In this document: positions 12,395 to 32,000 of the stretch, piece after piece | How the letters are laid out: each line of letters opens with the position of its first letter | How positions within the stretch are numbered: the stretch's first letter is position 1 | Source of the DNA: Candidatus Terraquivivens tikiterensis | Lineage (GTDB): Archaea; Thermoproteota; Nitrososphaeria_A; Caldarchaeales; Wolframiiraptoraceae | Direction: 5' to 3' | Assembly: GCA_003056285.1 (NCBI GenBank) | Contig: NDWU01000013.1 | Span: forward strand, 7,826-39,825 | Length of the DNA: 32,000 nucleotides | Notes under the pieces: model-generated | The model's database searches: none | What the model saw: the letters and a program-made list of their open reading frames with translations, nothing else | What the model was told of the DNA's origin: nothing | Translations under genes and position numbers: made by a program

Positions 12395-13294
12395 ATGAGG
12401 TTGCTGATTACTGGGTCGGAAGGTTTTGTCGGTAGGAACCTCAAGCGGTATTTTAAATCGTTCGGGTACGAGGTCGCAGGCGTCGATATAGTCGGCTCAG
12501 CAGAATACGTTGCAGACGTCACGGACAAGGATGCCGTCTTTCATGCGGTAATGGACTTCAAGCCCGATGCCATCGTTCACCTGGCTGCCGTAGTGAGCAT
12601 ACCGAAGTCCATAGAGGACCCGTACAACTGCTACCGCGTTAACTGCTTCGGCACGCTAAACGTCCTAGAGGCGTCCGCAAGGATAGGGCTGAAAAGGTTC
12701 GTGTATGCCTCCTCGGCGAACGTTTACGGTTTACCGAAGGAGTTACCAGTCAGGGAGGAGACGCCGATAAACCCCAGGTCGCCCTACGATTTCTCGAAGG
12801 TTATAGCCGAAAAGCTTGTCGAGAGTTATGTACGTCACAAAGGGCTACCGGCAGTCATACTCAGGTCTTGGAAGCTTTTCGGCGAGGAGGACGTGCCAAC
12901 CTCCGCCATAGTAAGGTTCGTGAGGAGCTGCCTTGCCAACCAGCCCCTGCATCTCTACAACGCCGGTAGGGACTCAACGGACCCAACGTACATCGAGAAC
13001 TACTGCGTTGCGGTCAAGCTGTGCCTTGAAAGGGAAGAGGCAGTCGGCCAGGTCTTTAACGTCGGAACGGGGAACGAGGTCACGATAAGGCAGCTGGCAG
13101 AAAAGATAAGGGAGCTAACGGGTTCCTCTTCAGAGCTCGTCCTGCTTCCGCCTAGGACCGAGATGGAATCCGAGCCCATGCGTAGCTATCCGAGCATAAA
13201 GAAGCTTATGGGCATAGGCTACAGACCCGTCGTAAGCCTCGAAGAGGGACTAAAAAGGGTAATAGACTATGAGAGGAAGATGGTAGGGTTCTGA
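12395..13294 (+). CDS. NAD-dependent epimerase/dehydratase (extended SDR, UDP-sugar 4-epimerase-like)
   Basis: Rossmann motif LITGSEGFVGRNL and catalytic YxxxK (PYDFSKVIAEK). A TATA-like TTAAAATATAAC lies about 30 nt upstream of the ATG. Confidence 0.85.
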   Translation: MRLLITGSEGFVGRNLKRYFKSFGYEVAGVDIVGSAEYVADVTDKDAVFHAVMDFKPDAIVHLAAVVSIPKSIEDPYNCYRVNCFGTLNVLEASARIGLKRFVYASSANVYGLPKELPVREETPINPRSPYDFSKVIAEKLVESYVRHKGLPAVILRSWKLFGEEDVPTSAIVRFVRSCLANQPLHLYNAGRDSTDPTYIENYCVAVKLCLEREEAVGQVFNVGTGNEVTIRQLAEKIRELTGSSSELVLLPPRTEMESEPMRSYPSIKKLMGIGYRPVVSLEEGLKRVIDYERKMVGF

Positions 13295-13295
13295 G

Positions 13296-14489
13296 TTAAG
13301 TAGAGGTTCGTAATGCTTTATTGCTTTCATTACCTCTACCTAACCCTTCCCTCTCGATCATCTCATCGAGGGCCTTCGGGGCGAACCCATGTCCCCACAT
13401 CCTGAGTATGTTTATGCATGCCACGAAGTGCCTATCCGCTTCGTAACCACAGTGTTTGCATCTAAAGACCTGCCCATTTGTCTTGGACAAACGCCCGCAT
13501 CTTGGGCAGGCCCTGCTTGTGTTCCTTGCCGGAACGTATTGCACTTTGTAGCCCAGCCATGCCATCTTGTACCCAATGAGGCTCTGGACTTTCCTGTACG
13601 GTAGCGACGCGACCTTGCGGTTCTTCCGCTTCGTACGTTTGTTTCTCGTGGCGTTATAGCTCAAGCCTTTAAGATTTTCAAATATGGGAGCAAGCCCTTC
13701 CTGGGATAGCTCTTTAACTATGCTCGTGGTTATCTTGTGGAGAATGTCGTTCACCCTTCTCCTCTCGCGCCTGGAGTACTTCTGCATGAGCCTCTTTGAT
13801 GTTATAGGTTTATGCTTTGAAAGGCTTTGGATCTTCCTGCGCTTCTCAAAGTAATGTACTCTGATTCCGTATAGCTTCTTTAAGTCGACCTTCCGATATT
13901 CTGCTGAGTCTCCTTTTACCTTAAGGAAGTCTATACTCATCAGGTTTACGTCGATGGAAGCATAGCCTATAGGAATCTTATCCTCGACTGCTCTCTTGAA
14001 GGTTACCATCGCCCTGTCCTCTAGTAGAGTTACCTCGCCTAAACTCAGCTCCCCATTCCTCCATGCATCGATGAATCTTTTCTGATATGAGCCTATTATT
14101 AGCGGAACCTCAACGTAACGATGCGGCATCGTCGTAATTACTATCCTATCTCCTTTGAATCGCATGAGCTCCTTCTGGAGCCTCATGGATAGGGCGTTGA
14201 AGGTCGGTGGATTGTTCGGGTCGGCCCTTCTCCTCTTAACAAGCCTTTTCCAGGAGCGGATTACGTTGCAGGCAACCCTAGCGGCCGAGATGCAGTAGTG
14301 GGTTGCGAAGCCGTACTTCTGCTTGAACTCCTCGTATAGGGCCCTCTCAACTTTCATAGGGGAGCTTACGTTGTGGCTTAGAGCATACTTTATGCATTCT
14401 TTCACCATATCGTTGAACGTTTGGAGCAAAGGCCTAACGTCGGAGCTATGCTTGAACGCTACCGCCTTTACGGCCTCCAACCTCCTCAC
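13296..14489 (-). CDS. tnpB: TnpB/OrfB RNA-guided-nuclease-type protein (IS200/IS605-IS607 accessory protein), apparently intact
   Basis: 397 aa. RuvC-I is ASIDVNL, RuvC-II is PIFENLKGL, RuvC-III is YEADRHFVACINI. Zinc finger is CPRCG...CKHCG. Confidence 0.9.
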   Translation of the reverse strand: MRRLEAVKAVAFKHSSDVRPLLQTFNDMVKECIKYALSHNVSSPMKVERALYEEFKQKYGFATHYCISAARVACNVIRSWKRLVKRRRADPNNPPTFNALSMRLQKELMRFKGDRIVITTMPHRYVEVPLIIGSYQKRFIDAWRNGELSLGEVTLLEDRAMVTFKRAVEDKIPIGYASIDVNLMSIDFLKVKGDSAEYRKVDLKKLYGIRVHYFEKRRKIQSLSKHKPITSKRLMQKYSRRERRRVNDILHKITTSIVKELSQEGLAPIFENLKGLSYNATRNKRTKRKNRKVASLPYRKVQSLIGYKMAWLGYKVQYVPARNTSRACPRCGRLSKTNGQVFRCKHCGYEADRHFVACINILRMWGHGFAPKALDEMIEREGLGRGNESNKALRTST

Positions 14490-14652
14490 CTTTCAGGATC
14501 CTTTCGATGTCGCTCCTGTAGTAGCGAAGCTTCCCGCTCGGAAGCCTTACAGCCCTTATCAAGCCCTTCTTGTACCAGCTCCACAGAGTCTTGTTGCTGA
14601 CCCTAAGTAGAGCCCTAGCCTCCTTAGGAGTAATGAGTTCCTCGTAAGCCAT
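14446..14652 (-). CDS. MerR/excisionase-type HTH protein, equivalent to the N-terminal domain of IS607 TnpA without a recombinase domain
   Basis: 68 aa: ITPKEARALLRVSNKTLWSWYKKGLIRAVRLPSGKLRYYRSDIERIL. The 3' end overlaps the tnpB start by 44 nt. No serine-recombinase catalytic motif follows. Confidence 0.7.
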   Translation of the reverse strand: MAYEELITPKEARALLRVSNKTLWSWYKKGLIRAVRLPSGKLRYYRSDIERILKGEEVGGRKGGSVQA

Positions 14653-14744
14653 TAAGGTAATATAGGAAACAAGTTTTATTTAAGCTTATTTATTCTGAAA
14701 ATGCTGAGAACGGCGCTACGGGATGAGATGCCTTCTTGCCGTTA

Positions 14745-14960
14745 GAAAAAGTTTCAGGATATGCACAAAGTCGTGATCCTATCGTAAAAAGCGCGGACAA
14801 AGCTTGGGATGTAGGGCCTTCCCCGTACGTATGACCCAAAGCTCGAAAGGGCCTGGGAGAACGTACGGGCGGGTTTGACCCGAAGGGAGCCAAGCCCTAT
14901 GAAATGCTCCCCAACGAGCCCGGAGGACTGGGCATCTAACCAGAAAAATGTAAAGCCCTC
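14745..14960 (-). ncRNA. R1: GC-rich structured non-coding element, paralog of R2 (26167-26452); function unknown
   Basis: The minus-strand core 14925-14803 aligns by eye at roughly 85% with 26262-26385. It has stems with wobble or compensatory changes and a CCC-UUCG-GGG type hairpin. Track ORFs here are similar to those in R2 in two frames at once, which indicates nucleotide-level rather than protein-level conservation. Confidence 0.45.
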
Positions 14961-15136
14961 TTCGCCCGGCCGAGCACAAAAAGAGCACACACCCATTAAA
15001 ACCCGCTCAGCTTAGATCTAACAAAACAAGGCTTATCTCACTTCCAACCAAGAGAGAAACCCAATGCATTGTTGATGGTATTACTTTTTTTATTTTTGGT
15101 AATACTTATATAGCCGACAACTTTTAGAAGTTTGGC

Positions 15137-31282: not shown

Positions 31283-32000
31283 TTATTCCATCAGTAAACT
31301 TGTCGTCCAGTAAGGGTTCTGAGCTATGTAATCTTTAATAGACATTACATAGCTCTTGGGACTCATCAGCCTTGGAGCCCTCTTGGGTTCATCGGACCCC
31401 TCATCAGCCTCCTCCCCTGTCAGGGTGAACCCTCTCCAAGCATTTATGAGCTCATCGAAGAGCCTTGGGCTTGGAGAAAGACCCTCCATCTTAAGGTATA
31501 GGTTTATTGCCCCTTTCGGGGCATTAACCATACCACACCTGGAGCACCTTTTGGTTGAATTGTATGGGTTGAGGGTTTTAATGCGAGATTTGTAGCCCAT
31601 CATTACTATCAGTTTCTTCCAATCGCTTTTTGCAATGTTTCTGTTATGTTCCTTGGAATTGTTGAACATTCTTTGCTTTTCAAGACTTTCAAATCCGTGC
31701 ATGTAACCTTTGAACTCTCTGCTTAGAGACGTCGTTACCTTATGCAGAAAATCAATTGCCCTGTTTCTCTCCCTTCTGGAATACTTAGCTAGGATTCTTC
31801 TTAGCGATGGCTTCTTCGAAGCTTTGCTCTGGAGCCTCTTCCTCTTAAGCTCATATGCTCTATGTATGTGGAATAGCTGTGAAAGGTCAACTCTAATCCA
31901 TCCAAGTTTAGGACTGAACCCATCTATGCTCTTCTCATTACTATCCCACGCAATCTTATCATGAATATTCTTTTCTTTATTACTGAACCTGAACGTGATT
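31283..32000 (-). CDS. tnpB: second TnpB-family protein, N-terminus outside the window, C-terminal nuclease/zinc-finger region degenerate
   Basis: The minus frame is open from 32000 down to the stop at 31283; the track shows only the part after the first Met. It reads ...IAWDSNEKSIDG (RuvC-I), ...KYSRRERNRAIDFLHKVTTSL..., MHGFESLEK (RuvC-II) and CSRCG (first zinc knuckle). The second CxxC and the DRDxNAAxNI RuvC-III motif are missing. Confidence 0.7.
   Translation of the reverse strand, partial: ITFRFSNKEKNIHDKIAWDSNEKSIDGFSPKLGWIRVDLSQLFHIHRAYELKRKRLQSKASKKPSLRRILAKYSRRERNRAIDFLHKVTTSLSREFKGYMHGFESLEKQRMFNNSKEHNRNIAKSDWKKLIVMMGYKSRIKTLNPYNSTKRCSRCGMVNAPKGAINLYLKMEGLSPSPRLFDELINAWRGFTLTGEEADEGSDEPKRAPRLMSPKSYVMSIKDYIAQNPYWTTSLLME

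Follow-up and report, generated by a model that had tools for sequence, protein, structure and literature searches.

A probable non-autonomous IS607-family element of Candidatus Terraquivivens tikiterensis with a stand-alone winged helix-turn-helix gene in place of tnpA

IS607 of Helicobacter pylori is the type element of the IS607 family of insertion sequences. Elements of this family are defined by a gene for the serine recombinase TnpA, with an N-terminal MerR-like HTH and a C-terminal catalytic domain, carry tnpB downstream of and overlapping the first gene, and have a matching core dinucleotide at both junctions with neither long inverted repeats nor a target-site duplication. TnpB elements, from which Cas12 arose, occur in very large numbers in archaea; the regulation and movement of the many copies lacking a transposase are poorly understood. 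Among these, the IS1341 group of IS200/IS605, solo TnpB genes within transposon ends (PMC10691335), and omega-RNA miniature inverted-repeat transposable elements (MITEs) are non-autonomous. Their ends are related to those of autonomous elements, TnpB and/or the omega-RNA is kept, and mobilisation in trans is presumed. The locus considered here lies in a 32,000-nucleotide stretch of Candidatus Terraquivivens tikiterensis DNA (the window; assembly GCA_003056285.1, contig NDWU01000013.1, positions 7,826 to 39,825). It is probably a copy of an IS607-family insertion sequence that is non-autonomous, its tnpA having given way to a stand-alone gene encoding a winged helix-turn-helix (HTH) protein of 56-72 residues, termed the mini-HTH, which overlaps tnpB. 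Unlike the TnpB-only elements, it has kept a DNA-binding gene that is conserved and under selection and that derives from, or is related to, the N-terminus of the transposase. Certain branches of serine recombinases have been noted in passing to carry an "additional HTH domain protein" (PMC10691335), and in the literature searched no account was found of an IS607 lineage whose recombinase has given way to a conserved HTH standing alone.

Inhibitors consisting only of a DNA-binding domain include InsA of IS1, OrfA of IS3-family elements, and the Tn5 inhibitor protein. Arc, a ribbon-helix-helix protein, is a small transposon-encoded repressor in IS605-family elements, and CvkR (structure 7XN2) is a MerR-type regulator of CRISPR-associated transposons (CASTs) belonging to type V-K, cited in the same work (bioRxiv 10.64898/2026.09.24.754181). 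As with Arc and CvkR, the mini-HTH is a small DNA-binding protein inside a transposon with an RNA-guided nuclease and is proposed to bind its own promoter. However, its fold is unlike that of Arc, it substitutes for the transposase gene instead of accompanying it, and its function is assigned here by analogy. BldC of Streptomyces (6AMA, 6AMK) and the excisionases of phages and integrative and conjugative elements (4J2N, 8C3T, 8DGL) are, like the mini-HTH, minimal stand-alone MerR-type winged HTH proteins of ~55-70 residues without an effector domain. They are its best matches in both sequence and fold, although their biological context is unrelated and their identity to it is only about 30-35%.

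The mini-HTH of the window is a 68-residue open reading frame (ORF) that matches Pfam HTH_17 (E 6e-10), with MerR and MerR_1 falling below their cut-offs. Among NCBIfam models it matches HTH_BldC (below cut-off) and excisionase models, and the transpos_IS607 model only weakly, with 27.5 bits against a cut-off of 110 over model positions 2-50 of 187. In the PDB its sequence matches BldC 6AMA/6AMK. The AlphaFold2 model has a predicted local distance difference test score (pLDDT) of 83, with residues 1-55 above 90, and predicts a folded domain of these residues with the secondary structure H-H-E-E-H followed by a disordered tail. Foldseek places BldC-DNA complexes (6AMA) at the top with template modelling (TM) scores of 0.80-0.85, followed by the phage Xis 4J2N (TM 0.77-0.80) and MerR-family DNA-binding domains, with CvkR lower in the list. 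The mini-HTH is thus nearest in sequence and fold to stand-alone BldC/Xis-type winged HTH proteins. An earlier note on this DNA had matched it to the N-terminal HTH of IS607 TnpA; the BldC/Xis type is closer, and the tie to TnpA lies mainly in the element architecture and the common ends. No Resolvase domain (PF00239) is matched in the ORF, the Resolvase domains of this genome being located elsewhere. As the ORF continues straight into tnpB, there is no space for a recombinase domain and only the HTH is present.

The second gene encodes a TnpB with matches to the NCBIfam model guided_TnpB (E 2e-28), Cas12f1-like_TNB, and OrfB_IS605. Its RuvC residues are D177 (SIDVN), E268 (FENLKG), and D349 (EADRHF), and its zinc finger CPRC..CKHC comprises C325, C328, C341, and C344. 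It also has PDB matches to TnpB/Cas12f structures. In the alignment with ISDra2 TnpB (8BF8), which spans RuvC-II and RuvC-III, the catalytic Glu and Asp correspond to E268 and D349. With both the D-E-D triad and the CxxC..CxxC finger in place, the protein is predicted to be an RNA-guided nuclease. The juxtaposition of a 68-residue HTH ORF lacking a catalytic domain with an intact tnpB, as described in the earlier note, is therefore confirmed in full. The same holds for the convergence with a neighbouring epimerase gene, the tnpB stop codon (13298-13296) being separated from the epimerase stop codon (13292-13294) by 1 nt.

The two genes overlap on the same strand, tnpB being downstream, which is the IS607 arrangement. 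The overlap is 44 nt if tnpB starts at GTG 14489, the length given previously, and 35 nt if it starts at TTG 14480. The latter start is more probable, since copies C35 and C3 of the same genome have ATG and GTG, respectively, at the corresponding codon, so the overlap itself stands but its length is more probably 35 nt. Copy C35 (G000:C35:21033-22236) holds a full-length tnpB with 83% amino acid identity and an intact right end, without a left end or HTH gene. Its tnpB has an ATG start and its own TATA-like box, and the copy is either 5'-truncated or a solo TnpB.

The element was delimited by blastn against its own genome and by alignment of the ends of 8-10 copies. On the left, similarity ends at G-CC/GTTCTCAGCATTTTCAGAATA, and on the right at CTCTACTTAACTCAGAAC/CC, 10 nt past the tnpB stop; CC is found at the left and right junctions in all copies. 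The left end carries a CAGCAGTTTCAGAATAG-type motif that is kept in the element family, in two other HTH-only families, in the TnpA-bearing IS607 copies C4, C7, and C5b of the same genome, and in elements of other genomes. Downstream of it, TTTAAATA-type boxes occupy the equivalent position in all family members. Given archaeal promoter geometry, this TATA-like box is presumed to be the promoter of the HTH-tnpB operon.

The right-end side of the insertion site can be compared with the closest sister species (G006), the epimerase of which is 88% identical. Nucleotide similarity between the two species spans the epimerase gene and stops exactly at 13287, where G006 continues as GTGATG-CC-TACCC with a single CC. 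The orthologue in G006 ends in KKRVGITK, whereas that of the window ends in RKMVGF. The last residue (F) and stop of the window epimerase have therefore been supplied by the right end of the element, positions 13286-13294 holding the final Phe codon and TGA stop. In agreement with IS607 transposition, the element has no long inverted repeats, a matching core dinucleotide at both junctions, and no apparent target-site duplication, although only the right flank is syntenic and the absence of a duplication is not fully proven.

The ends are also homologous to those of elements that encode TnpA. The TnpA-bearing IS607 copies in this genome are C4 (10.78-12.63 kb), with an intact TnpA of 220 residues, C7 (34.9-36.8 kb), and C5:40485. 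The left ends of C4, C7, and C5b read GCCGT..CAGCAGTTTCAGAATAG followed by a TATA-like box, as in the element, and the right-end terminus CTCAGAACCC is common to the element, C7, and C5b. Assignment as a non-autonomous IS607 derivative follows from the left-end motif, the right-end terminus shared with TnpA-bearing copies, and CC at both junctions; the matching dinucleotide and lack of long inverted repeats fit transposition by a serine recombinase. Autonomous IS607 copies such as C4 and C7 resemble the element further in gene order, with a DNA-binding gene overlapping tnpB, and in their right-end RNA module. They differ in that the element lacks the serine-recombinase catalytic domain and cannot transpose itself, and in that its HTH belongs to a separate clade with 38-50% identity to TnpA HTH domains. 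The right-end hairpin had raised mobilisation by a Y1 transposase (IS200/IS605) as a candidate, which is excluded by the IS607-matching ends, the CC core at both junctions, and the presence of only one Y1 gene in the genome; nor do the ends resemble those of IS200/IS605. The coordinates of the features are collected in Table 1.

Table 1. Features of the element, its right-end RNA module, its insertion target, and its copies in the same genome
Feature	Position	Strand	Basis
Whole element, 1,428 bp, with CC at each junction (14713-14712, 13287-13286)	13286..14713	minus	blastn, end alignments, synteny with G006
Left-end terminus G-CC-GTTCTCAGCATTTTCAGAATA with conserved CAGCAGTTTCAGAATAG-type motif; putative HTH binding site	14691..14714	minus	End alignments
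TATA-like box TTAAATAAAA, presumed operon promoter; distance to the downstream HTH ATG about 22-31 nt	14674..14683	minus	Conserved position
TTTCAGAAT, candidate HTH target sequence			
Mini-HTH, 68-residue MerR-type winged HTH, BldC/Xis-like	14446..14652	minus	Pfam HTH_17, PDB, AlphaFold2/Foldseek, dN/dS
tnpB, 394 residues from TTG 14480 (alternative GTG 14489, 397 residues)	13296..14480	minus	NCBIfam, Pfam, PDB
Presumed 3' domain of the omega-RNA scaffold, last 103 nt	13286..13388	minus	RNAalifold consensus, covariation, covariance model
P1	13388-13383 with 13291-13286	minus	GGGUUC/GAACCC, closes the domain
P2	13372-13349	minus	CCCUC/GAGGG
P3	13346-13293	minus	Long hairpin, variable loop
Putative guide segment UACCAUCUUCCUCUCAUAGU, antisense to the last epimerase codons	13266..13285	minus	Right-end boundary and TnpB biology; length assumed
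NAD-dependent epimerase/dehydratase gene, insertion target	12395..13294	plus	Pfam Epimerase, E 2e-50
Left halves with HTH gene	Contig ends C13, C23, C3		Own-genome tblastn/blastn
Right halves	Contig ends C10, C19 (two), C22		Own-genome tblastn/blastn
Right-end fragments	C1, C16, C36, C38, C26		Own-genome tblastn/blastn
290-bp internal-deletion derivative	G000:C14:22437-22726		Own-genome blastn

The last 103 nt of the element are presumed, from their expected position and form, to be the 3' domain of an omega-RNA scaffold. This module covers the last 31 codons and stop of tnpB, the stop codon lying within the 3' strand of P3. The alignment comprises 15 sequences drawn from the host genome and from others; pairing extends to 98% of cells, compared with 29-55% in slid controls, and five pairs show compensatory changes. 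Pairing is preserved even in one member (L043) with a wholly different P3 sequence. A covariance model built from the alignment has 30 matches in the genome, including tnpB 3' ends, among them those of the TnpA-bearing copies C4, C7, and C5b, and gene-less mini-elements (MITEs). A scan against Rfam at gathering and permissive thresholds returned no relevant family for the module. The placement of a scaffold within the tnpB 3' coding region, as predicted in the earlier note, agrees with a right end so close to the stop codon and with this covarying three-helix structure finishing at the transposon boundary (13286).

TnpB systems take their guide from the DNA next to the right end. By this analogy, the 16-20 nt that follow 13286 would serve the window element as guide and would run antisense to the epimerase gene at its 3' end, as previously proposed. 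The conserved G that precedes CC at the left-end junction is a hint of the transposon-adjacent motif (TAM). In the C4 element (G000:C4:10780-12629), GG replaces CC at both junctions, and CCGUUG/CAACGG takes the place of GGGUUC/GAACCC as the closing helix. The recombination core and the final bases of the RNA helix thus change together.

The host genome (G000; 1.54 Mb, 39 contigs) was searched for copies by tblastn and blastn, and holds about 6-8 diverged copies of the element at 78-88% nucleotide identity together with several fragments. The 290-bp derivative on C14 consists of the left end, an intact HTH ORF of 59 residues, and a right end reduced to the P3 hairpin and terminus; it originated by deletion between two GGTTGG microhomologies.

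From these features the following mechanism is proposed. The left-end promoter would transcribe the HTH gene and tnpB as a translationally coupled operon, and the 3' part of the transcript would give rise to an omega-RNA with flanking DNA as its guide, here the epimerase 3' end. TnpB with this RNA would cut the empty site, recognised by G-CC and a guide match, so that the element is retained or re-copied as for other TnpB elements. Movement itself would depend on a serine-recombinase TnpA acting in trans from a related IS607 copy. The mini-HTH, like the DNA-binding domain of TnpA, would recognise the CAGTTTCAGAAT-type motif immediately upstream of the TATA box, and probably TCAGAA in the right end as well, and would repress its own expression and/or modulate the access of TnpA. 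By analogy, it most likely serves as a BldC/Xis-like regulator that binds the promoter and ends of the element. No new kind of system is indicated, but the element does present a simple one of three parts: a 68-residue protein, a left-end motif of ~25 bp, and an RNA module of ~100 nt. Whether the mini-HTH represses the promoter, competes with the transposase for the ends, or assists it are questions for which this system is suited. In addition, it is a source of TnpB/omega-RNA pairs from a thermophile in which the boundaries between scaffold and guide are well defined.

A related-locus search over genome contigs gave only 9 loci, and the distribution of mini-HTH genes (minis) was followed more widely in a 401-genome sample of the phylum. 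A Resolvase domain is present in 13 of the 17 genomes with minis and in 120 of the 384 others (odds ratio 7, p = 2.4e-4), and the genome with the most minis (G285; 15 copies) has 12 Resolvase matches. This co-occurrence fits mobilisation in trans, without proving it. Several observations weigh against the reading as a trans-mobilised IS607 derivative. Three genomes (G033, G010, G007) have 1-2 minis each and no Resolvase domain; the two copies in G010 are only 85% identical, which bears neither way on recent mobility without a resident TnpA. In the host genome the copies are diverged by 12-22% in DNA, so recent mobility is not demonstrated, and the sole intact TnpA is that of C4, with its GG core and different P1 helix, so a cognate active transposase is not demonstrated either. 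The left flank is not syntenic in G006, leaving only the right junction for comparison, and the regulatory role of the mini-HTH is drawn by analogy only, which leaves room for a positive role in transposition. The TnpA genes of C7 and C5:40485 are frameshifted, each at a different place. As both TnpA genes with a CC core are frameshifted and the copies are this diverged, the family may currently be immobile in the present genome.

The best surviving alternative, although unlikely, is that the mini-HTH is a positive mobility factor. It would either form a recombinase-independent unit with TnpB, spreading by RNA-guided cutting and homology-directed copying, or recruit a host or foreign recombinase to the ends. 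The wide spread and multiplication of the minis (15 copies in G285, 6-8 in the host genome) and the three genomes without a Resolvase domain are in keeping with this idea. However, the many-copy genomes are rich in serine recombinases and the co-occurrence is significant, the CC core at both ends is a serine-recombinase crossover signature, and insertion at new sites is impossible by homing alone. It is quite improbable that the mini-HTH is an obligate partner of TnpB, the pair being a self-sufficient selfish unit in which the HTH marks the ends for copying repair of TnpB breaks or hijacks unrelated recombinases. If true, this would explain the persistence and spread of a transposase-less lineage across several archaeal phyla.

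The mini-HTH is not a product of recent decay. The close relatives of the mini-HTH (65-88% identity) are all 56-72 residues long and come from metagenome-assembled genomes (MAGs) labelled Nitrososphaerota, Bathyarchaeia, Jordarchaeales, and Methanospirareceae. In every context read, they abut or overlap a tnpB of 390-430 residues at unrelated chromosomal sites, and the elements of the Nitrososphaerota- and Bathyarchaeia-labelled MAGs have left and right termini identical in type to those of the window element. In the phylum sample, HTH matches of at least 50% identity almost always lie in frames of fewer than 100 residues, whereas those of 36-49% identity lie mostly in TnpA frames of 205-225 residues. 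No full-length TnpA with a near-identical HTH occurs among the matches of at least 50% identity in this sample, other fusions excepted, or among the best 150 of 1,080 matches in a representative library, of which 10 were scanned with Pfam. A tnpB follows 10 of the 11 sampled minis, the exception being a 213-residue protein with a C-terminal HTH (L090).

The tree of the 54-column domain groups 22 of the 23 minis into a single clade (support 96/84), divided into three subclades and separate from 17 of the 18 TnpA HTH domains, within the limited resolution of so short an alignment. One mini type (L075) clusters with TnpA HTH domains, which suggests a second origin of minis. The ratio of nonsynonymous to synonymous substitution rates (dN/dS), calculated on the 55 codons outside the tnpB overlap, is 0.10-0.27 within the host genome and 0.03-0.08 between genomes, where dS is saturated. 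On this comparative evidence the mini-HTH is an old gene kept by purifying selection and not recent debris. Together with its position beside tnpB, this supports the view of the earlier note that the HTH is a dedicated, selected partner. The same note had spoken of mapping a deletion against full-length IS607 copies; as a recent event, such a deletion does not agree with an old, separate clade. The tnpB genes ~70% identical to that of the window are paired with either the window HTH type or the L075 type, which means that the modules reassort. These results point to an old and widespread lineage, maintained by selection, whose transposase has been cut down to the DNA-binding module.

The HTH type also occurs as part of larger proteins. 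In L090 (G140:C39:33.3-34.0 kb), P0033, P0037, P0043, and P0046, an HTH with 60-67% identity forms the C-terminal domain of proteins of 175-213 residues. Their N-terminal ~130 residues have no Pfam match, and no tnpB lies near L090, the only one of these for which the context was read.

These data make it very unlikely that the locus is an ordinary IS607 which has lately lost the catalytic part of tnpA, leaving the 68-residue ORF as a functionless remnant. A possible origin of this kind is visible in the frameshifted TnpA genes of C7 and C5:40485, one of which leaves an HTH-only frame of 73 residues, and the clustering of L075 with TnpA domains is in line with it. However, there is no remnant of a recombinase between the HTH ORF and tnpB, and neither the selection and saturated divergence, the single clade of nearly all minis, nor the uniform size of the closest database relatives and the conservation of the architecture across phyla is expected of decay.

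None of the six congeneric species has the mini-HTH, and its occurrence across the family is patchy. This speaks for horizontal arrival followed by expansion in the host genome, rather than for a domesticated orthologue. It bears on the proposal of the earlier note that the locus is an immobilised, possibly exapted RNA-guided nuclease paired with a dedicated DNA-binding protein. Such a nuclease would serve the host, one possible role being to regulate or target the epimerase locus. An intact TnpB, purifying selection on the HTH, and a putative guide antisense to a host gene would be compatible with such a role, and TnpB exaptations such as TldR are known (PMC10691335 and a related preprint). 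Nevertheless, exapted TnpB proteins are nuclease-inactive or non-mobile and occupy a conserved host locus, and the window element resembles them in neither respect. Its nuclease triad is intact, unlike that of known exapted regulators, and it is a multi-copy unit with defined transposon ends, about 6-8 copies being found in the host genome and none in the six congeners. At the orthologous site of G006, synteny is lost precisely where the right end begins to differ from it, and the flanks differ in every genome, with the same element type at unrelated sites in other archaeal phyla. Exaptation is thus largely refuted and highly improbable.

Programmed frameshifting that joins the HTH ORF and tnpB into an HTH-TnpB fusion, as in IS1 or IS3, would draw on the 35-44 nt frame overlap but can practically be dismissed, as the tnpB frame is +1 here and in L042, L048, and L050 but -1 in L052, the overlap ranges over 1-35 nt, no slippery motif is found, and tnpB begins with a conserved start codon (TTG/GTG/ATG).

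Further IS607-type elements lie in the window. A second one occupies window positions 31314-32000 and runs off the right edge (G000:C5:39139-41000), with the right end CATAGCTCAGAACCC at 31314 followed by tnpB and then tnpA. A frameshift divides this tnpA into the 73-residue HTH-only frame and a catalytic frame of 190 residues. Next to the left end of the HTH-tnpB element lies the repeat R1 (window ~14738-15004, plus strand), a gene-less mini-element of IS607 type with at least 11 paralogues, including C5:2964-3154, C27:8309-8505, and C10:32570-32683. Its left-end-like terminus GCCGTTAGAAAAAGTTTCAGG (14738-14758) is head-to-head with the left end of the HTH-tnpB element, 23 nt apart. R1 has an omega-RNA-like core and a degenerate right end and does not match the RNA model, while four such mini-elements elsewhere in the genome do.

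In total, the 1.54 Mb genome holds 48 TnpB-like matches and 30 omega-RNA-like modules. The six congeners, which lack the mini-HTH, have genomes of 1.2-1.3 Mb. This suggests a lineage-specific expansion of IS607-type elements in the host genome. A different fate is seen in L048-L051, from Jordarchaeales MAGs and metagenome contigs, in which the right-end hairpin is deleted and tnpB continues through CCAGAACCC into the flank. The left-end motif of these loci is degenerate, and they are surrounded by many small unknown ORFs in a virus- or plasmid-like context.

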